Below, piece by piece: positions 3,821 to 64,000 of a stretch of 64,000 bases of DNA. The position numbers and the translations under genes were made by a program. The stretch's first letter is position 1. Every line of letters starts with the position of its first letter. This stretch comes from Escherichia phage DK-13. Location: sequence record MT611523.1. One strand, given 5' to 3'. The notes beneath the pieces are model-generated. The model had not been told where the DNA came from. It saw only the letters and a list, made by a program, of their open reading frames with translations, and ran no database searches.

Positions 3821-4765
3821 TTAATAAAATTCAGCAATATTTGCAGTTAGTTTAGACAGACCAGACTTAACAAAGTAAGGATAAACTTTACTTTTGGCTG
3901 GGATAACGTAGTTATTATATCGTTCTAATATTGAAGCGGATATTTCCGTTGGGATAAAGTCCATATCAATCAACAATTGGTTTTCACAGAATCTATTATA
4001 TTGCTCTTCTGTTAAAAGCGTTTTCAAAACGTCATGGTCGTAATAGTTGAGTGCAATTTGTTCAAGCTCAGCTGCACGGGTTGGCGGAGTACGTTCACCT
4101 TCTTCATGAGTGTAATAAAAATCACCACGAACCTTGATGCTCGACACGTTATCTTTTTTGTCGCCTTTAACAACCTTTGTCACGCAATCCATAAGGGCAT
4201 CGCCTGATTTAGTTTTGACATATTTTTTCTGCATCGGGGACCATTGTTTCACCCCAGGGAATTTATGCAACTGGGTAAAGTCACCATCCGAAGAAACAAC
4301 CATAACCGGATGTCCGAGACTGGTGAGCAACTTCGTTAATACTGCAATATGGTCGTCTGCCTCGACTTTATCAATATTCATCACGATGTAAGGCATGTAT
4401 TTTTCCATTTCATCGATGATGATGTGCATGGCAGCATGTAGACCTTCCCAATCGAATTGAGACTCTTCACGAGCCTTTGCACGGTTTTTCTTATAATAAT
4501 AAGATTTAGTCCGGCGCCAATAGCCATTCTTCGAGTTATCAACACAAATAATTGGAATTGTATAACCAAGCTTTTTGAACTGTACGATATTTTTTCGGAT
4601 AGAGTTCAGAACCAAGTGTCTGGTCATTGCAGTTGTTACTTTCGGAAAGCCTGCGTCTTTGCCGAATTCCTGAAAGGCTGCAGCCATGATAAGCTGACTA
4701 AAATCGAGTAACTGAAAACCTTCTTTTTGACGGTCTTCTTCAGGGAGTAAAAAATCTAAATTCAT
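3821..4765 (-). CDS. rnh: RNase H (5'-3' exonuclease / flap endonuclease)
   Basis: 314 aa; motifs YYKKNR.KAREES.WDWEG, DKYEADDHIAV, SSDGDFTQLHK resemble T4 RNase H; synteny upstream of gene 34 on opposite strand. Confidence 0.9.
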   Translation of the reverse strand: MNLDFLLPEEDRQKEGFQLLDFSQLIMAAAFQEFGKDAGFPKVTTAMTRHLVLNSIRKNIVQFKKLGYTIPIICVDNSKNGYWRRTKSYYYKKNRAKAREESQFDWEGLHAAMHIIIDEMEKYMPYIVMNIDKVEADDHIAVLTKLLTSLGHPVMVVSSDGDFTQLHKFPGVKQWSPMQKKYVKTKSGDALMDCVTKVVKGDKKDNVSSIKVRGDFYYTHEEGERTPPTRAAELEQIALNYYDHDVLKTLLTEEQYNRFCENQLLIDMDFIPTEISASILERYNNYVIPAKSKVYPYFVKSGLSKLTANIAEFY

Positions 4766-4822
4766 ATGAACCTCTGTTCAATTAGTTGACTCGATTATAT
4801 TAGCATAAAAATTTTAAAGCAA

Positions 4823-4830
4823 TATAAATA
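4823..4830 (+). promoter_or_regulatory. T4-type late promoter motif upstream of gene 34
   Basis: exact TATAAATA about 30 nt upstream of gp34 ATG. Confidence 0.6.
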
Positions 4831-4861
4831 CACATATACCAAATCAATAAGGATAAAGCAC

Positions 4862-7800
4862 ATGGCCGATATTTTAAAACCAGCATTCAGAGCAACATCC
4901 GGTCTCGATGCTGCTGGTGAGAAAGTCATTAATGTCGCAAAAGCTGATTACTCAGTTTTATCAGACGGCGTTAACGTAGGTTTCTTTATAGAAGAAAACA
5001 CAATTCAACAATATGATGCGACGCGCGGATACAAAAAGAACTTTGCGGTTATTAATGATAACCGTATTTGGGTTGCTCAACGTGATATTCCGGCACCAGC
5101 TGGAGCATTTACCCCTCAGTATTGGTTAGCAACTCGTACTGACCCTAAATGGGAAACTGTTGCATCTCCAACTCGTCAGCTTAGCTCCGGGGAATTTATC
5201 GCAGTCGACTCAGCTGCAAGCTTTACCACATTTACATTGCCTCCGAACCCGACTGATGGTGATACCATCGTTATTAAAGATATCGGCGGTAATACCGGTT
5301 ATAATGAAATTAAAGTTCAATCGAGCAATGTGCCTGGTCAAGGTAACCAAAAGATTGTTCGCTTTGGTAATCAGTATTCAGAAGTTTTAATTACCAAACC
5401 ATTCTCTTATAACATGCTTATCTTTTCAAACCGCTTATGGCAATTTTGGGAAGCAGGTAACGAAGAACGTGGTATCAGAGTAGAACCGTCGACCGGACGT
5501 TTCCATGCACAAGCTGGCGACTTTATTATGCGTCGTTATACAACTGGTGCACCGATTACTTTCATTCTTCCTAAGTATGCAAACCAGGGTGATATTGTCA
5601 AATCTGTTGATATCGATGGTATGGGACCAACGTTCCACCTGATGGTTGAAACCTTTGACACTAGTTCCAGTCTTGATAAAGCTGGTCAGCATCAAATGGA
5701 ATTCCGCACCACAGGTGATGGTTTCTTCGTTTATGATGCTGCCGAAAAACTCTGGCATGTTTGGGACGGTGATTTTAAAACTCGTCTTCGCGTTATTCGC
5801 GACAGCGTTAAACTTTTACCAAACGAAAGTGTCATTGTATTTGGCGAAGATAACTCAACTCCGGCAACGATTAATATCGATTTGCCAACTAATGTTTTGC
5901 AAGGCGATATTGTTAAGATTGCGCTGAACTATCTCCGTAAATCGCAGACTGTTAATATAAGAGCTGCTGTTGGCGATAAGATTGCAACTGACATTAAATT
6001 GCTGCAATTCCCTAAACGTTCCGAGTATCCACCAGATACAACTTGGGTGATGGTTGATTCATTGACCTTTAATGGCAACATCAGTTATACTCCGGTTATT
6101 GAATTATCATATGCAGAAGATGCAGTGTCTGGAACAAGTTATTGGGTTGTCGCTCAGAACGTCCCGACTGTCGAACGAGTTGACTCATTAAATGATTCCA
6201 CGCGTACACGTCTTGGTGTTATTGCTCTGGCAAACCAGACTCAGGCAAACGTTGACCATGAAAATAACCCAGAAAAAGAACTCGCAATTACCCCTCAGAC
6301 TTTAGCCAACCGTGTTGCTAAAGAGAACCAACGAGGCATTGCCAGAATCGCAACGACTGCCCAAGTAAATCAGAACAGTGATTTTGCATTTGTTGATGAT
6401 GTAATTATTTCTCCGAAAAAACTCAATGAACGTACGGCAACAGAAACGAGACGCGGGCTCGCAGAACTCGCCACACAGCAAGAAACCAATGCGGGTGTAG
6501 ATGATACCACAATTATAACTCCAAAGAAACTGCAAGCTCGCCAGGGCTCAGAATCGCTATCCGGTATTGTAACTTACGTTTCAACAACCGGTGCAACTCC
6601 TGCTGCTTCGCGTGAATTAAATGGTACAAACGTTTATAATAAAAATACGGTTAATCTGGTTGTTTCTCCGAAAGCTCTTGACCAGTACAAAGCTACTTAC
6701 ACCCAACAAGGTGCGGTTATTCTTGCGGTTGAAAGTGAAGTAATTGCTGGTACTTCTCAATCTGGCTGGGCAAACGCAGTCGTTACTCCAGAAATGTTGC
6801 AGCGCAAAACTGCTCTTGATTCCCGTATCGGTTTAATCGAGATTGCAACTCAAGTAGAAACAGATGCAGGAACCGATTATACCAGAGCTGTGACTCCTAA
6901 AACGTTAAATGACCGTAAAGCATCAGAAACGTTAACCGGCATAGCCGAGATTGCTACGCAATCAGAATTTGATACTGGAACTGATGATACTCGTATCTCA
7001 ACTCCATTAAAAATTAAAACTAGATTTAATAATACTGCTCGCACTTCTGTTAATGCATTAAGTGGTTTAGTAGAAACAGGGACGCTCTGGGACCATTATA
7101 GCCTGAATATTCTTGAAGCAAATGAGACTCAACGCGGTACGGCAAGATTAGCAACTCAGGGTGAAGTCAATACCGGCACTGACGATAAAACAATCGTTAC
7201 TCCGCTTAAATTGATGTCGAAAAAAGCCACTGAAAATGCCGAAGGTATTGTTCGCATCGCGACAAACGCAGAAGCAACAGCAGGCACATCAAAAGTCTTG
7301 GCCATCAGTCCGTCGGCGCTGAAATATATTGCACAAACGGAAACAACCTGGGAATCATCTGAAACACTGCGTGGATTTGTTCGTTTATCTTCTGGTACAG
7401 CTACTTCGGCCGCAACTACAACGACTGGTGCAGGATTTACATATGCAAATGGTGTGTATACTCCGGACCCAAGTAAACTGGTTAGCTATTCAAAATCTGG
7501 TTATGCAGTTTCACCTTACGAATTAAACCGCGTATTGCAAAACTTCTTACCGATAAATGCGATGGCTGTTAATGCTGAAAAACTGGATAACCTTGATTCG
7601 ACCCAGTTTATTCGTCGTGATATTGCTCAGACTGTTGAAGGTGTGTTAACTCTTACTAAACAGACAAATATATCTGCTCCGGTTGTATCGACGAGCACTG
7701 CAGTGTTTACTGATGTAACGGCTGGCACTTCGACGTTCGGAACTGTGAATGTTGTTAACGGAACTAACAAGTGGAAAATCACCGCTCCTTCCGCCGGAAC

Positions 7801-21543: not shown

Positions 21544-21688
21544 AATCATCTCCAGTAGTTGATAGGTTCATTATACTACAACCACTGGAGATGTATACTC
21601 TTTTATGCAAGTTTCATTAATAATAAACTAAAACAAACGCAAATTACTGGGATACACAATATCCAGATAAGACACCAGGTTTTGCTGC

Positions 21689-36547: not shown

Positions 36548-36591
36548 TTTATTATCCTCATCAGTAGTTGATAGGAACATCTTAACGTGTC

Positions 36592-41358: not shown

Positions 41359-42108
41359 CTAAACTTTTGCGTACTTCCAAAAATGGCCGTTTGACCTATA
41401 CATTCGGCCTGTCTTTTTATTTCTTTTACAAGCTGTGTATATATTTTGAGTATTGCCCGCCAATTGTAATAATTCCTTTGCCTCAGCTCCCGAATTATAC
41501 TTTTCAAGTATATTACCAAATTCATCGCATCTACAAACCGGTGTTCCAGTTGCCTTTCGGCATGCTTCTCGGCGCAACTTTTTCGTTTCTTCGGTTTGCG
41601 GATTTTCTTTAAATCGTCTCATTTGTGCATCGCGATTCTTTTGCCGTTGTTCATCAGTAATTGGATTATTTTGATAATACAATTTTAATGAGTTGGCTAT
41701 TTTGCTTTTGGTTTTATCAGACGCAGGGTGGTCGTTATGTCGCTTGTGTAAAGCAATTAACATTTTGTCTTTAAACTCGGATTGACTCCATAAGTTTGAC
41801 ATATGTTCACTAACGGCTTTACTATGTTCTTTTCGCATCCATTCATATTTTGCGCTATCAAATTTGTCACCACACATCCGGTGTATAGCAAACATTAATT
41901 TAGAAAGTCGATAAATTTTAAAAAGTAACAAATGCGCAATAAAATGTTCTCTTGCTGATAACAATACCAAATTATCTTCGGTGTCAGGCCCACCCAAACA
42001 CCTTGGTAGTATATGATGGGACTCCGTATAAAATGGGATATTCTTTTTGTTTAGGCCCCTTGCGAGGCCTTTGTCTATTAATTTATTATATAATTTTAGA
42101 TAATTCAT
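41359..42108 (-). CDS. HNH-family homing endonuclease-like protein
   Basis: 249 aa; HNH motif ESHHILPRCLGGPDTEDNLVLLSAREHFIAH; N-terminus paralogous to plus-strand HNH ORF at 56212; inserted between 61 and 56. Confidence 0.75.
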   Translation of the reverse strand: MNYLKLYNKLIDKGLARGLNKKNIPFYTESHHILPRCLGGPDTEDNLVLLSAREHFIAHLLLFKIYRLSKLMFAIHRMCGDKFDSAKYEWMRKEHSKAVSEHMSNLWSQSEFKDKMLIALHKRHNDHPASDKTKSKIANSLKLYYQNNPITDEQRQKNRDAQMRRFKENPQTEETKKLRREACRKATGTPVCRCDEFGNILEKYNSGAEAKELLQLAGNTQNIYTACKRNKKTGRMYRSNGHFWKYAKV

Positions 42109-43133
42109 ATTTTTGCATATTTGGATAATCGAAGTTTTGCCATTAAACCTTGTGCAATATTATCATTCATATAGGCTTCAATTTGCTCAGGCGTTGCTCC
42201 TTCCGATTTAATCATTTCATTTATATCTTTCGTATGCCACGGTGCATTGTCCCAGAACATAACAGCTTCTCCTGCATCGACTAATTTCTTCATACGTTTA
42301 ATTGTATCAGGATGTCTTGCTTCTGAATCCATCACCCATACTCTGGTTTCTGGATAAGGAACAGCTTCCAATGACAATGTTCCACCAGTTATCGCAATGC
42401 TGTTAGGGATAAACAAACTATCAATCGGACCTTCCATTACCCATACACGTTTACGCTCATCAATCTTGTCTACGCCATAGACTTTGGAAGCTTCTGGGTG
42501 AGCTTTGATTGTGATATATTTTTGTGGTGCATCTTTGCGAAGAGCTCGTCCTTGGAAAGATTCGATTTCTTTTTTGCCGTTGAAGATAGGAATAACCAAG
42601 CGTGGTTCATTCGTTTCATTCTTATACGTCCCAGGATTAACGGAGTTAACTAATGCGGGCCATTGGTTTGTAAACCATAACCGGTTCCAAACATTGCTCG
42701 GAATACACCGACTTTTTACATACTTAACTATCGGATGCGCTTCTGGTAAAGTATCGAGTCTTTCACAAAAAGCAAGCTGCTCAATAACCGGAGTTTTTTC
42801 TGGTTCTTTCGGAGTTTCAATGACTTCATTGCGTTGTCGCCCGAAGGCGTTCTCCTTATACTTCTCAACCATATATTCCCGGTGTAAATCCGGCTCAAAC
42901 TCTTTTATGTATTTGCTTATATGCGTGGAGTAGTCACAGTTAAAACATTTCACGTAAACCGCACCATCAGCCGGATTAGTATACGCCCAGAATCGAGCCT
43001 TGTGTGAATCTTTCTGGGAGTCCCCACAAACCTTGCAACGACAGTTTGCTTTAAATGTGCTCCCGGTGACTTCTCTATAACGTGGTTGATACGATAAAGC
43101 TCTGACTGCAAATTCTTTATCAATATATGACAT
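42105..43133 (-). CDS. 61: DNA primase gp61
   Basis: 342 aa; zinc-ribbon C.VCGDS...C.NC then TOPRIM-like region (...EGPIDSLF..N.IAITGG...); C-terminal IAQGLMAK.RLSKYAKI resembles T4 gp61. Confidence 0.9.
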   Translation of the reverse strand: MSYIDKEFAVRALSYQPRYREVTGSTFKANCRCKVCGDSQKDSHKARFWAYTNPADGAVYVKCFNCDYSTHISKYIKEFEPDLHREYMVEKYKENAFGRQRNEVIETPKEPEKTPVIEQLAFCERLDTLPEAHPIVKYVKSRCIPSNVWNRLWFTNQWPALVNSVNPGTYKNETNEPRLVIPIFNGKKEIESFQGRALRKDAPQKYITIKAHPEASKVYGVDKIDERKRVWVMEGPIDSLFIPNSIAITGGTLSLEAVPYPETRVWVMDSEARHPDTIKRMKKLVDAGEAVMFWDNAPWHTKDINEMIKSEGATPEQIEAYMNDNIAQGLMAKLRLSKYAKI

Positions 43134-43165
43134 AGTTTCCTCATTTCAATGGCCCCGAAGGACCA

Positions 43166-43333
43166 TTATACTGTAGGTTTATCGTCTTTGTTCTTACGCT
43201 TTTTTGATGGGATTTGTTCAGGGCCTTTATTGACAACTGCCCCGGAAGTGGTACCTGTTGCGATATTAGTTGGGTTTCCACCTGCATCACCGGCAACCAT
43301 ATTTTCGTTGATAAAATCTTTGAATGTTTTCAT
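43166..43333 (-). CDS. small hypothetical protein (55 aa)
   Basis: manual translation MKTFKDFINENMVAGDAGGNPTNIATGTTSGAVVNKGPEQIPSKKRKNKDDKPTV; strong SD AGGGGGTG. Confidence 0.4.
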   Translation of the reverse strand: MKTFKDFINENMVAGDAGGNPTNIATGTTSGAVVNKGPEQIPSKKRKNKDDKPTV

Positions 43334-43352
43334 AACACCCCCTTTCCGCTAT

Positions 43353-43544
43353 TTATACAACGAAGATAGCTTTATCACCATTTGCATCAGTCACTTCATA
43401 AGTGTCTTCATGATACAATGGAATAATCCAGGTAACACCATCATCAGCGATAACATGGATTGCTTCTTGGTCTTGCGACACGATTTCATATTCTTCAAAA
43501 ATCTGGAAGACGGAAATCTTAGAGCCCGTACACATTGCACTCAT
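43353..43544 (-). CDS. hypothetical protein (63 aa)
   Basis: ATG ORF. Confidence 0.4.
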   Translation of the reverse strand: MSAMCTGSKISVFQIFEEYEIVSQDQEAIHVIADDGVTWIIPLYHEDTYEVTDANGDKAIFVV

Positions 43545-43740
43545 ATTGTTCCCTTCTTTTAATCAGTTGGCGATGTGCCTTTTTAAGTTTACGAATCTGA
43601 CGTTTAGTCGGTCGAGCAACGTAAGCTTGAGTAGTTACTCGTCCAAAAACTCCATACTTGGGAGACGGAGTATCAATAAAGACTTCCCATTGACAAGAGT
43701 AACTATATATTGCTTTAGAGAATTGGGTCAAAACAAACAT
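43519..43740 (-). CDS. hypothetical basic protein (73 aa)
   Basis: ATG ORF; basic C-terminus. Confidence 0.4.
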   Translation of the reverse strand: MFVLTQFSKAIYSYSCQWEVFIDTPSPKYGVFGRVTTQAYVARPTKRQIRKLKKAHRQLIKRREQYECNVYGL

Positions 43741-43741
43741 A

Positions 43742-44095
43742 TTAACCTCGCTTCATGAAGGCATTAAAAATCTGGTCGTCAACAGACTGTTCTTGAGCTT
43801 TGACCCAAGCTCCTTCCAGAATGTCATTCGCTTCAGTAGATATCATGACCCCAATTTCAGGGTTTCCTGTTATCCATGCTGCACAATCGCGCACATTCTT
43901 TTTATCAAATGGGTAGCCGCGAGTATCTTCATAAGGTCCATTCATTACCATAAATGAGCGAGCCTTTATGATAACATCATCTTTAACGATAATATAACCA
44001 ATCGCCTGATTAAACCGAGGCTCACGGAATTCATAATGAGCATTACCGTCATTATTGCTCGCTAGTTCAAAATTCAGAAAATTATAATAACTCAT
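43742..44095 (-). CDS. hypothetical protein (117 aa) ending in VDDQIFNAFMKRG
   Basis: ATG ORF; last 12 codons encoded by a 37-bp sequence repeated at the end of the next gene. Confidence 0.5.
   Translation of the reverse strand: MSYYNFLNFELASNNDGNAHYEFREPRFNQAIGYIIVKDDVIIKARSFMVMNGPYEDTRGYPFDKKNVRDCAAWITGNPEIGVMISTEANDILEGAWVKAQEQSVDDQIFNAFMKRG
43747..43783. repeat. 37-bp direct repeat, copy 1
   Basis: ctcgcttcatgaaggcattaaaaatctggtcgtcaac, identical to 44102..44138. Confidence 0.7.
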
Positions 44096-44096
44096 A

Positions 44097-44534
44097 CTAA
44101 TCTCGCTTCATGAAGGCATTAAAAATCTGGTCGTCAACTGAATATACAGGGGTTTCCAGAATTTTCAAAAGACTGTTTTTGATGTACTTACCCGGGATAC
44201 CCATATTAACAATACTGTCATTCAATTCATTGTCAGGGTTGATGTCTTTAAATTCAAACCCGTCAAACTCAACCTTGTCAGGAATACCATCAGCGAAAAA
44301 ATAAACCAATTGGTGCATTGTATTGCACGAAAATAATTTGGACTTGACCGCAATAAGTTCTTTCCAATGGTTTAATTCTTTGTTAAGAAGCTTATGAGCA
44401 AACGTAATTCTATCATCACTATCAACAAGAAAATAACCCAGGTATTGAATGTCGTCGCTCCAAAACACCCGGTATGCCTGTGCATTTGGATTTTTACAGC
44501 GAAGTTTTTTGATAACTAAATTTCTGTTAATCAT
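44097..44534 (-). CDS. hypothetical protein (145 aa) ending in VDDQIFNAFMKRD
   Basis: track ORF 44097..44621; start moved to ATG 44534 with AGGTGA SD directly after sp stop. Confidence 0.45.
   Translation of the reverse strand: MINRNLVIKKLRCKNPNAQAYRVFWSDDIQYLGYFLVDSDDRITFAHKLLNKELNHWKELIAVKSKLFSCNTMHQLVYFFADGIPDKVEFDGFEFKDINPDNELNDSIVNMGIPGKYIKNSLLKILETPVYSVDDQIFNAFMKRD
44102..44138. repeat. 37-bp direct repeat, copy 2
   Basis: identical to 43747..43783. Confidence 0.7.
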
Positions 44535-44535
44535 T

Positions 44536-44829
44536 TTATTCACCTGTAACCCATTGAACAATTTTGCTATTGTCAAATGAAGCATCGCAATACAGAACAT
44601 AGTTATACTGCATAACGTCACCAGAAGTCAATTTGTCAGATACTTCTTTAACCATATCAGGGCGGTCACGTTTAGTTATGTTCATAATATCAGCATAAAT
44701 CTGATGTTCAACATCAGTCTGGTCGGCAGTCATAGACCACTCACAAAGGTCTTTATCAAGTCCAGCAGTAACTGGAGCTGTACCACATGATGCTACGGTA
44801 AGAATTGCCGCGATTAATAACTTTTTCAT
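44536..44829 (-). CDS. sp: periplasmic superinfection-exclusion protein Sp (spackle)-like
   Basis: 97 aa with N-terminal signal peptide MKKLLIAAILTVASCGTAP; same length and position (between 61 and 41) as T4 sp. Confidence 0.55.
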   Translation of the reverse strand: MKKLLIAAILTVASCGTAPVTAGLDKDLCEWSMTADQTDVEHQIYADIMNITKRDRPDMVKEVSDKLTSGDVMQYNYVLYCDASFDNSKIVQWVTGE

Positions 44830-44886
44830 TTCAATCTCCTCAGTAGTTGATAGGGATAATATACAGCATTATCCCTTTGTTGTACA

Positions 44887-45126
44887 CTATTTTAATGCAT
44901 CTTCCAGATAAATTTTGCGGAATTTGCGTTTTGTCTGACGAATCTGACGCTTGGTAGGTTTCACAGGAAATTCGAAGAACTCTACGTATTCTTGTTCATA
45001 ATCATTGTGGCCGACTGAAAGAACTAGTTCCCAGCTGCTTACGGTGCGTTGGATAAACATATTATGCTTACCAAAAGATTTATTCCAAAAAGAACTAGGG
45101 GTAGGTTTCATTAATGCGATATTCAT
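44887..45126 (-). CDS. hypothetical protein (79 aa)
   Basis: ATG ORF; basic C-terminal tail. Confidence 0.4.
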   Translation of the reverse strand: MNIALMKPTPSSFWNKSFGKHNMFIQRTVSSWELVLSVGHNDYEQEYVEFFEFPVKPTKRQIRQTKRKFRKIYLEDALK

Positions 45127-45330
45127 TTAAATTTCCTCAATGCGGGCATCATATTCAAAAACTTTATTGTCATTAACAAAGGCTTTAACCAGCGCATTAT
45201 TCACTTCTGCATACTGCACTGTAACCCATTCAATCATATTTTTGTCACTAACATCCAGCGCGGTTTCTTTGGTAAACATATTACCGTTTTCAAACCAACC
45301 AATAAATACTACGTTCTCTAATTTATACAT
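45127..45330 (-). CDS. dmd: Dmd-like antitoxin (discriminator of mRNA degradation)
   Basis: 67 aa; pattern V.F.GWF.N..MFTKE...W.T.QYAEVN.ALVKAF..D.KV matches my recollection of T4 Dmd; position near gene 41. Confidence 0.5.
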   Translation of the reverse strand: MYKLENVVFIGWFENGNMFTKETALDVSDKNMIEWVTVQYAEVNNALVKAFVNDNKVFEYDARIEEI

Positions 45331-45648
45331 TTAGATTTCCTCGCAGAAGGCCCAGGCAGCGTGATAAACTGTTGCGCCTTTAGTATCATTTAAACAAACC
45401 ACGTCAACCGGTGCAATCACACGATAAAGACGGGGTTCTCCTCCATATGAGCGAGCTGCTCTTCCTGCATAGATACGTGCCAAACCAATATCTTCAGTAA
45501 AAAACACACGCCCTAAATTTTTCTTACGCCCAACTTCTGACAGAACACCAGTTGCATCAGGAGGGCAAAGCATATTTTGGATTCCAGCATTAGAGCTTGA
45601 CCCATGATAATAAACTTTGTATTCTGCCTTGCAATCAATGGTTTTCAT
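45331..45648 (-). CDS. hypothetical protein (105 aa) with PARP-like NAD-binding signature
   Basis: YYHGSSSNAGIQNMLCPPDATG...GRVFFTEDIGLARIYA resembles the H-G-S and Y-F-A-D blocks of H-Y-E-class ADP-ribosyltransferases; ATG with leader/SD. Confidence 0.5.
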   Translation of the reverse strand: MKTIDCKAEYKVYYHGSSSNAGIQNMLCPPDATGVLSEVGRKKNLGRVFFTEDIGLARIYAGRAARSYGGEPRLYRVIAPVDVVCLNDTKGATVYHAAWAFCEEI

Positions 45649-45685
45649 TTTATTCTCCAGTAGTTGATAGGGTCATTATAACATA

Positions 45686-45710
45686 AGAAAAAGGGGCTGT
45701 AAGCCCCTTT
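45686..45710 (-). terminator. rho-independent terminator after gene 41
   Basis: minus strand AGGGGC-UUACA-GCCCCU followed by UUUUUCUU. Confidence 0.55.
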
Positions 45711-45719
45711 TAAAATATT

Positions 45720-47159
45720 TTAAAATTTCATTTGAGCAGCAAGGTCGTCCAGGTCGCTCCTGTTGACCCTGGTTTGTCGATTCATTTCAGCCTGGCGATT
45801 CATCTCACCGGTGGCTTCTTTAACTGTAGGGCCTTGTTTAGGAGCCGAATCATCATCAACCTCATACCAGCGCTGATTACCTTTCTTAACACCCATCTTG
45901 AATTTATTATAGTAGTTCTTATCACCATAACGAGACTTAAGCTGTTTGATTAACTGCAGCCCCATTTGAGCGAATTCTTCGGTCTCAACAACACCCAACA
46001 TAAAGTCAGCTGTATGAGCAATACCAAAGGATTCTGCGATGTCAGCCATATCAATCTCAGCTGCAACGTTCGCGCCCCTGGTTGTCTGCGCTGCAGTCCA
46101 CAGGACCACATTTTTCTCGACTGCCAGACCACGAAGTTCTTCTGCAACCATCTTAATCAGACCGTAACTATTTTCGGTAAACGTTTTCAGTCTTGAGCTT
46201 GCACAGATTGCCAGGTAGTCAACAATAATCACATCTGGTACAAACCCTTGCTTCAGCTTGTACTCGTTCAGTAATGCACGGAAGGTGTCCGCATGAGCAC
46301 CGCCAGTTGGATATTGTTTTATCTTCAGAGTCCCAAGAGTCCCGGAAGCACGCCATTTTTCCATCTTAGCTTTATATTCCGCCCATGACACATGACCTTC
46401 ATCAATATCATCCAGAGATACATCCAGCAAGTTGGCATCAATACGTTTGGCACATACTTCTTCAGCCATTTCCATGCTTATATAAAGCACATTATGACCA
46501 GTCTGAAGATAGTCAGCGGCTAACGAACAAAGTCCAAGGGATTTGCCGACGTTCGTCCCGGCCAGTAAAACGTTCTCTGTACCGTACTCAACCCCACCCT
46601 TTGTGATTTTATTCAGGATGTTAATACGGAACGGAACCTTCTTCGATTTGTTCAGATAAGTCTGGAATCGAGCTTCGTAATCGTTTAACCAGTCATGGCC
46701 CAGAGCGGAGTCAAAACAGATAGACAATGCATCGCGCATGATGTCGGGGATAGCACCAATATCCGGGATTCGTTTATCACGTTTATCTTTAGGAAGTTCG
46801 GCATTACTCTGGATTTCGATAATCCTGGATGTGGCATTGAACATCGCAGACTTCTGTACATACTTCTCGGTTTCTTTAACCAACCAGTCCTGGTCTTCTG
46901 GAGTATCGGCCAGGACTCCTAAGAGTTTCTTTGTGCCTTCATATTCGACTTCAGAAAGGTCAGAACTGTCGAGCGCGATATCAAGTGCAGTCTTAGTTGG
47001 TACCGCTTGATATTCTTTTACGTGTTCGTTAATCGTATTAAAAAGGGTCTTTGCAGGACCCTTTTCAAAATATGTGTTATTCAGATATGGCCAGACTTTA
47101 ACAAAATATTCCTTGTTAAAGAGTAGCTGGGATAAAATAGTTTCTACCACTTCCACCAC
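45720..47159 (-). CDS. 41: replicative DNA helicase gp41 (DnaB-like)
   Basis: 479 aa; N-terminus MVE...LS.L.F...YF.KVWPY; Walker A GTNVGKS; resembles T4 gp41; track start is GTG. Confidence 0.93.
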   Translation of the reverse strand: MVEVVETILSQLLFNKEYFVKVWPYLNNTYFEKGPAKTLFNTINEHVKEYQAVPTKTALDIALDSSDLSEVEYEGTKKLLGVLADTPEDQDWLVKETEKYVQKSAMFNATSRIIEIQSNAELPKDKRDKRIPDIGAIPDIMRDALSICFDSALGHDWLNDYEARFQTYLNKSKKVPFRINILNKITKGGVEYGTENVLLAGTNVGKSLGLCSLAADYLQTGHNVLYISMEMAEEVCAKRIDANLLDVSLDDIDEGHVSWAEYKAKMEKWRASGTLGTLKIKQYPTGGAHADTFRALLNEYKLKQGFVPDVIIVDYLAICASSRLKTFTENSYGLIKMVAEELRGLAVEKNVVLWTAAQTTRGANVAAEIDMADIAESFGIAHTADFMLGVVETEEFAQMGLQLIKQLKSRYGDKNYYNKFKMGVKKGNQRWYEVDDDSAPKQGPTVKEATGEMNRQAEMNRQTRVNRSDLDDLAAQMKF

Positions 47160-63947: not shown

Positions 63948-64000
63948 TATGTTTTCCTCATCAGTAGTTGATGGGATAATGATACATCATTCAAAGGGGC

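Follow-up and report, generated by a model that had tools for sequence, protein, structure and literature searches.

A probable Dhakavirus version of the T-even accessory island between genes 41 and 61 of Escherichia phage DK-13

The stretch of DNA analysed here, 64,000 nucleotides of Escherichia phage DK-13 (sequence record MT611523.1; 'the window' in what follows), carries homologues of the T4 proteins Spackle (Sp), Dmd and TifA between gene 61 (primase) and gene 41 (helicase), together with a small open reading frame (ORF) modelled as an ADP-ribosyltransferase (ART). We read this interval as the Dhakavirus version of a conserved, early-expressed accessory island that T-even phages hold between genes 41 and 61, and give this reading a probability of about 0.8. 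The analysis covers gene identities, synteny, motif conservation, promoter and leader repeats and the ART fold; biochemical activities and host targets are carried over by homology. Every element within 44536-45330 belongs to a family already described, in a place already described; the island itself has been published before, as have the roles of three gene families in it and the neighbourhood of ART and Dmd. What the finding confirms, in the main, is that a real phage counter-defence island with a coherent set of functions can be recognised from raw sequence.

Layout and relatives of the island

The source phage is a T-even of the JS98/Dhakavirus type. Over the 2.65 kb from 43100 to 45750, identity is 96-97% with the E. 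coli phages TH40, TH22 and UPEC07 and about 86% with JS98. A sequence-only reading of the window had placed four ORFs, of 97, 79 and 67 aa and a PARP-like one, between primase and helicase. All four are present on the minus strand (Table 1), the PARP-like ORF (105 aa) directly abuts dmd, and their location is borne out by the alignment of gene 61 and by the DnaB_C match of gene 41. The genes considered real in the interval all lie on the minus strand. Plus-strand ORFs (e.g. 45140-45334), antisense to conserved genes, were treated as non-coding and not scanned separately. The annotations of JS98 and pEC-M719-6WT.2 show the same layout, and the order 41 / (ART) / dmd / 61.4 / sp / 61.2-slot / 61.1 / 61 agrees with that of T4, RB69 and JS98. 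NCBIfam gave no match for any of seven island proteins.

The dmd-tifA-adfA region of T4 has been proposed to form an 'anti-TA island' (TA, toxin–antitoxin), the other genes of which are attractive anti-toxin candidates (Srikant, Guegler and Laub 2022, PMC9391042). The T4 island occupies the same position between genes 41 and 61 and shares with the window the order dmd, 61.4, sp, 61.2-slot, 61.1 as well as the placing of early promoters. Unlike T4, the window has an ART gene between gene 41 and dmd, a second TifA paralogue, no true AdfA, and a TifA with a specificity loop unrelated to that of T4. The JS98 locus (orf34-dmd-61.4-sp-orf30-orf29-orf28-61.1) has nearly the same genes and gene order, but one ORF, not two, separates sp from the TifA paralogue. 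At the RB69 locus (ORF040c-dmd-61.4-imm.1-imm-sp-61.2), dmd again directly follows the gene of the same ART, ORF040c, and precedes tifA; what differs is that imm and imm.1 separate tifA from sp, that a true AdfA is present and that there is an additional ORF041c. The suggestion that unassigned neighbours in the cluster would be further counter-defence genes was right, but it had been anticipated in print, 61.4 being TifA and T4 61.2 being AdfA.

The content of the island varies even among close relatives. In locus L005 (IMGVR_UViG_2706795408_000001), the ART of which is 99% identical to that of the window, the tifA slot holds a 113-aa dmd-like gene (4532-4873, plus strand). The protein that it encodes, between dmd and sp, consists of an N-terminal Dmd-like domain and a C-terminal extension. 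A similar 110-aa gene is present in locus L025, and phage fDHCT2 is annotated with both dmd_1 and dmd_2.

Spackle and Dmd

The identification of the 97-aa and 67-aa proteins as Sp and Dmd, which the sequence-only reading had put forward, survives alignment with the T4 proteins. Against Pfam T4_Spackle (PF25676) the 97-aa protein scores 146 bits (E=4e-43; cut-off 27) over profile positions 1-96 of 96, and it aligns with T4 Sp over all 97 residues without gaps at 65% identity. In the PDB it matches 6x6o (E=1e-37) and also 6xc0, 6xc1 and 7cn6. The product comprises an N-terminal signal sequence, with the hydrophobic stretch expected of an export signal (MKKLLIAAILTVASCGTAPVTA), and a 75-aa mature part. 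Shi et al. located residues S32, M33, T34, A35, Q37 and N76 of Sp at the interface with the gp5 lysozyme (PMC7677548); these six and the C29/C81 disulfide pair are all identical to T4, eight positions out of eight. Judged by its sequence, the 97-aa protein is Spackle. T4 Sp acts against the gp5 lysozyme (PMC7677548), and by analogy the secreted 75-aa protein would bind the lysozyme domain of gp5, carried on the tail spike by a superinfecting T-even, and would thereby stop penetration of the cell wall.

The 67-aa protein matches Pfam Dmd (PF17587) with 74 bits (E=1e-20; cut-off 27), is 57% identical to T4 Dmd, and finds RB69 Dmd (5i8j, E=9e-22) and the T4 Dmd-LsoA complex (5hy3, E=5e-17) in the PDB. 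These matches identify it as Dmd, an antitoxin-like inhibitor of RNase toxins of the RnlA/LsoA class. In T4, dmd counters RnlA (PMC9391042). By analogy, the protein of the window would most likely bind and block HEPN RNase toxins of the RnlA/LsoA type, which would be freed as the host antitoxins decay after infection.

The TifA homologues

The 79-aa ORF had been left unassigned in the sequence-only reading, a verdict that does not hold: JS98 annotates its counterpart as 61.4, the gene that was renamed tifA by Srikant et al. 2022 (PMC9391042). The ORF matches Pfam DUF7279 (PF23945) with 70.8 bits (E=9e-20; cut-off 24.5) and is 45% identical to T4 gp61.4 (E=1e-16) and 97% identical to JS98 gp61.4 at the protein level. 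The gene immediately before it is dmd, which is also the case in T4, RB69 and JS98. The Pro-Thr (PT) cap and basic helix P57-T58-K59-R60-Q61-I62-R63 are invariant in the alignment of the TifA family, with PTKRxxR kept. A sequence search of the PDB with the 79-aa protein gave no match, and a homologue search with the same query returned 5 close relatives that added nothing. Membership of the T4 gp61.4 (TifA) family is firm as far as sequence can establish it.

The activity of the family is well documented in T4. The phage escapes the type III system toxIN through amplification of the dmd-tifA operon, and TifA alone neutralises ToxN (PMC9391042). RB69 TifA, too, is a strong inhibitor of ToxN (PMC9391042). 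TifA binds both RNA and ToxN, trapping the toxin in a ribonucleoprotein complex (Guegler et al. 2023, PMC10853763). The Pro-Thr helix cap and residues K55, R56 and R59 of the basic C-terminal helix (RB69 numbering) are needed for RNA binding and for the inhibition of ToxN (PMC10853763). By analogy with T4 and RB69 TifA, the 79-aa protein would bind RNA through its PT-capped basic C-terminal helix, and a type III (ToxN-like) endoribonuclease would be caught on the bulk RNA.

A profile search of the window found only two ORFs of the TifA family, the second being the 73-aa ORF in the distal part of the island. It is 39% identical to T4 TifA (E=1e-13) and contains a PTKRQIR motif as well as a T4-like 'FGRV' loop, which is absent from the 79-aa TifA; the two paralogues resemble each other solely over the basic helix. 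T4 and RB69 have a single TifA gene in the 41-61 interval.

The ART-fold protein upstream of dmd

The 105-aa ORF directly upstream of dmd had been called PARP-like, and this call is supported at the level of the fold. The protein is modelled as an ADP-ribosyltransferase with a conserved N-terminal H-G-[ST] NAD-binding motif. Within the family Y60 is invariant and E103 nearly so, while F49 is invariant within an RVFFT strand; these are candidate residues for a catalytic triad (H-Y-E/D/Q or equivalent). PDB searches with the ART sequence and with an ART profile gave no sequence-level match to any chain. The protein of the window has no match in Pfam, in which 2 of 29 family members reach Arr-ms (E=0.08).

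The homologues fall into 121 clusters, which share 53-99% identity with the query and have source names from phages of Escherichia, Enterobacter, Pantoea, Erwinia, Acinetobacter, Serratia, Citrobacter, Providencia and Vibrio. Phage records with the protein number 609, among them 116 from Klebsiella, 68 from Acinetobacter, 62 from Aeromonas and 14 from Vibrio. When 1.84 billion representative proteins were searched with a profile, the domain also turned up within proteins of 500-3900 aa. In nine of these large proteins, Pfam recognised Arr-ms (weakly) alongside ART-PolyVal, NUDIX, a lambda-type portal, 2H/Acb1-like, GNAT and Toprim domains. Phage 'polyvalent' effector proteins show this mix of domains, which lends support to the fold-level assignment. 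The 105-aa protein is therefore best described as a putative minimal ADP-ribosyltransferase-fold enzyme, a description that the model supports at the fold level. With 96-105 aa, its family is shorter than the minimal ART-fold enzymes Tpt1/KptA, Arr and AcrIF11; the protein is one of the smallest known with an ART fold. When the literature was searched for experiments on this mini-ART, the one mention found was computational (Iyer et al. 2022).

The genes that follow the ART elsewhere are diverse. In loci without dmd downstream, the next gene encodes a 41-46-aa acidic CxxC protein, a 55-60-aa membrane protein or a secreted 96-aa protein, or the ART is followed by unrelated ORFs. In loci L008, L018-L020 (at about 4288-4460) and L021-L031 (about 4315-4490) of other T4-like phages, the gene directly after the mini-ART encodes either a zinc-ribbon-like acidic protein, which has two CxxC pairs, or a two-helix membrane protein; a 4-nt overlap with the stop codon of the ART is frequent. 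These acidic and membrane proteins may be alternative partners of the ART.

Promoters, leaders and gene junctions

The genes of the island are preceded by two cassettes that resemble early promoters (Table 1). Gene 41 is immediately followed by a G+C-rich hairpin and T-run that look like an intrinsic terminator and stand upstream of the ART gene; the loop and the 3' arm of the hairpin run into the -35 hexamer of the promoter-like site, forming a composite that resembles a PeSL. The cassette before sp contains an embedded 9-bp stem-loop (44852-44876, repeat D3), a leader (44841-44855) and the Shine-Dalgarno (SD) sequence GAGGAG. The leader CCCTATCAACTACTG(G/A)(A/G)GA follows both promoter-like sites. 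This 15-nt leader occurs in 5 copies in the window, all on the minus strand, against 0.06 expected. The copies of CCTATCAACTACTG (motif on the minus strand) lie at 21553-21567, 36562-36576, 44841-44855, 45658-45672 and 63962-63976. Each is preceded by a TATAAT-like -10 element and followed by an SD sequence and an ATG, with a GTnTACA-like -35 element wherever the flank is available. By their sequence context, the leader repeats are parts of a conserved early promoter and 5' untranslated region cassette that is reused across the genome.

The genes of the first unit are very tightly packed. The start codon of dmd abuts the stop codon of the ART gene (GAGGAAATCTAAATG), and that of tifA abuts the stop codon of dmd (GAGGAAATTTAAATG). 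The SD-containing junction GAGGAAAT(C/T)TAAATG occurs twice on the minus strand, at 45316-45335 and 45112-45131. The repetition of the junction explains why the ART and Dmd both end in -EEI and why Dmd of the window is 7 residues longer than T4 Dmd. In T4, dmd-tifA is driven from an early promoter that precedes dmd, and a second early promoter is situated downstream of tifA (PMC9391042); the arrangement in the window agrees with this placing. It is probable that two sigma-70-type early cassettes with a common leader would drive two compact minus-strand units. The first would be ART-dmd-tifA, with each SD sequence embedded in the preceding gene; the second would comprise sp followed by the two ORFs of the adfA slot, the second TifA paralogue and two small ORFs.

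Composite promoter/terminator stem-loop cassettes, or PeSLs, are known from the hyperplastic regions of T4-like phages (Arbiol 2010, Comeau 2014; PMC2839356, PMC4122927). There, as in the window, a hairpin with an early promoter borders variable genes. Unlike in the PeSL model, the one clear recombination scar in the island, a 49-nt repeat, is located in a coding 3' tail and outside any PeSL.

The adfA slot and the 49-nt repeat

T4 adfA (61.2) encodes an anti-DarT factor (PMC9391042). The corresponding slot of the window holds a 145-aa and a 117-aa ORF, which are unrelated to each other and to AdfA save for a C-terminal tail. This common tail, S(V/I)DDQIFNAFM(K/N)R(G/D), corresponds to the last ~14 residues of AdfA (conserved C-terminal peptide KYIKNSLLKILETPVYSVDDQIFNAFMKR). 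In BLASTP the 145-aa ORF aligns with T4 AdfA over the C-terminal ~60 aa only (E=4e-5), it has no match to Pfam AdfA, and its 36 homologue clusters are without the AdfA domain. The 117-aa ORF reaches positions 196-211 of the 211 in Pfam AdfA (PF23813), with 21.4 bits below the cut-off of 27. Neither protein shows homology over the full length of AdfA, including the stretch around residue 164 that determines whether DarT1 is bound. A direct BLASTP comparison of the two ORFs finds 13 residues in common only. Iterated hidden Markov models of the two proteins merged through the common tail and were unusable for separating the families.

The family of the 145-aa protein is narrow: all named members of its 36 clusters are from Escherichia/Enterobacteria phages (e.g. 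JS10, Bp7, QL01 and WG01). The last ~30 residues (44097-44186, minus strand; homologues P0121-P0156) are the most conserved part, with the pattern KYIKNSLLKILExPVYSxDDQIFNAFMxRx, and these C-terminal 30 aa are modelled as disordered, with a per-residue model confidence (pLDDT) below 50. A conserved but disordered tail of this kind may be a partner-binding peptide. A fold search with the N-terminal domain was uninformative. A longer version of the ORF that starts at GTG (174 aa) would overlap sp and was rejected: the PHROG match covers residues 30-174, and the ATG at M30, taken as the start, comes 1 nt after the stop codon of sp.

The 117-aa gene is exactly bracketed by a 49-nt direct repeat (43738-43786 and 44093-44141, repeat D1; 94% identical, spacing 355 nt), which takes in the codons of the ...DDQIFNAFMKR tail, the stop and the start codon of the gene that follows. 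JS98 is without the 117-aa gene. The repeat looks like the scar of a cassette that was inserted or duplicated by recombination.

Alternative explanations

Three points weigh against the reading of the interval as an early-expressed accessory island with counter-defence functions. The promoters are consensus matches only. The predicted specificity loop of the 79-aa TifA is unrelated to that of T4 and RB69, being one residue shorter and lacking a residue at position 41; in T4 TifA, the loop around F41 tunes ToxN binding. In the published neutralisation screen, which included TifA_JS98 (Table S2, PMC10853763), all homologues other than those of T2, T4, T6 and RB69 rescued 0/7 toxins, i.e. six ToxN homologues and TenpN (PMC10853763). 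In keeping with the third of these points, the 79-aa protein could be a general early RNA-binding protein, serving for instance the protection or regulation of mRNA, and no anti-toxin in this lineage. Its JS98 twin is in the group that rescued none of the type III toxins, strong conservation across the TifA family is confined to the RNA-binding helix, and the near-identical phage of locus L005 is without the 79-aa gene. Yet the ORF keeps the syntenic position and the co-transcription with dmd that characterise the active TifAs. Moreover, the screen verified expression for just two of the non-rescuing homologues, JS98 not among these (PMC10853763), and its authors regard inactive homologues as tuned to other cognate toxins. 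We consider a mere RNA-binding role improbable; the divergent loop and the negative result with the JS98 twin point instead to a cognate toxin other than those tried. A different possibility is that the clustering has no functional meaning at all, the 41-61 interval being a hyperplastic region in which PeSLs and repeats swap unrelated accessory genes, so that neighbourhood would not be predictive. The literature on PeSLs describes such regions (PMC2839356, PMC4122927), PeSL-like cassettes of promoter and stem-loop flank the units, and the 117-aa gene sits within its direct repeat. Likewise, the tifA slot of L005 has been swapped for a second dmd-like gene, imm and imm.1 are inserted between sp and 61.4 in RB69, and several near relatives cover just 89-93% of the region 43100-45750. 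On the other hand, three genes of this neighbourhood each act, as independent work has shown, against a different TA system (PMC9391042), and the replacement in L005 is again a member of the Dmd family, i.e. the content of the slot changes while the theme is kept. Hyperplasticity explains how the island is built rather than what its genes do and is in this respect largely compatible with an accessory island; that the clustering is functionally meaningless appears rather unlikely.

The relation of the ART to Dmd allows for further interpretations. Iyer et al. 2022 described the ART-Dmd neighbourhood of enterophages and predicted it to be a type II TA pair of a 'p0068-family' ART toxin and a Dmd antitoxin (PMC9503650); it is the same gene pair in the same phage groups as in the window. 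If this applied here, Dmd would neutralise the ART instead of, or besides, the host RnlA/LsoA toxins. The published prediction itself speaks for such a pair, as do the small size of both proteins and the direct abutment of the two genes in 14 loci (TAA-ATG in the window, a 4-nt overlap in RB69-like loci); the presence of the ART domain in large multi-domain conflict proteins suggests that it is probably an active effector. But Dmd is found downstream in just 14 of the 58 ART-bearing loci (55 loci on viral contigs and three annotated phage loci), and in most lineages the two genes occur independently, in contrast to what the prediction of a pair implies. The ART is common in phages of Klebsiella, Acinetobacter, Aeromonas and Vibrio, whereas Dmd, with 797 phage records, is dominated by Escherichia and Shigella, and none of those four genera is among the ten most frequent organism names of the Dmd records. 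In T4, finally, dmd directly follows gene 41 without any ART. The low rate of pairing, the differing distributions and the arrangement in T4 make an obligate ART-Dmd pair unlikely, and we hold the type II interpretation to be very improbable. A more elaborate version of the island hypothesis would see the first unit as a coordinated module against RNase toxins, with an active ART that ADP-ribosylates a host defence component or RNA ends, with Dmd and TifA as stoichiometric inhibitors, and with two TifA paralogues whose unrelated loops are each directed against a different type III toxin; this we regard as speculative and doubtful.

The island reading leaves four leads, each of which would extend the catalogue of phage anti-defence mechanisms: the target of the Dhakavirus TifA, given that its near-identical JS98 twin failed against all toxins tested; the second TifA paralogue with its T4-like loop; the widely conserved mini-ART co-transcribed with two anti-toxin genes; and the C-terminal tail common to three unrelated proteins of the adfA slot.

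Neighbouring genes and features

The remaining genes of the interval are small and conserved, and are listed in Table 1 along with the features discussed above.

Table 1. Genes and regulatory features of the 41-61 interval in the window, in the direction of transcription
Feature	Position	Strand	Basis and remarks
Gene 41, helicase	45720-47159	-	DnaB-like; Pfam DnaB_C 3.8e-13
G+C-rich hairpin with T-run, directly after gene 41	45689-45711	-	Terminator scan: 10 pairs, 5 G-C
Early-promoter-like site CTTACA-17-TGnTATAAT, with leader CCCTATCAACTACTGGAG and start of the 105-aa ORF	45649-45703	-	10/12, extended TG
105-aa ART-fold ORF	45331-45648	-	RB69 ORF040c / JS98 orf34 family, phrog_2110; first gene of the ART-dmd-tifA unit
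dmd, 67 aa	45127-45330	-	Pfam Dmd, T4 alignment, PDB matches
tifA (gp61.4) homologue, 79 aa	44887-45126	-	DUF7279, phrog_2375
Second early-promoter-like cassette TGTACA-17-TATATT, before sp	44830-44886	-	Consensus scan, motif scan
sp (Spackle), 97 aa	44536-44829	-	Pfam T4_Spackle, T4 alignment, PDB matches
145-aa ORF	44097-44534	-	phrog_8539; position of T4 adfA (61.2)
117-aa ORF	43742-44095	-	phrog_4122; tail SVDDQIFNAFMKRG
Second TifA-family gene, 73 aa	43519-43740	-	DUF7279, phrog_3272
63-aa ORF	43353-43544	-	RB69 orf033c-like, phrog_3249; small, conserved
55-aa ORF	43166-43333	-	gp61.1-like, phrog_1823; small, conserved; completes the sp-led unit with the 63-aa ORF
Gene 61, primase	42105-43133	-	Aligns with the annotated primase of JS98 and pEC-M719-6WT.2

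Beyond the island, a 249-aa ORF (41359-42108, minus strand) overlaps the end of the primase gene 61 by 4 nt. This position is occupied by no gene in JS98 and by dam in T4. The ORF contains an HNH-like motif that scores 19.8 bits with Pfam HNH, just under the cut-off of 21.4, and it looks like a homing endonuclease.

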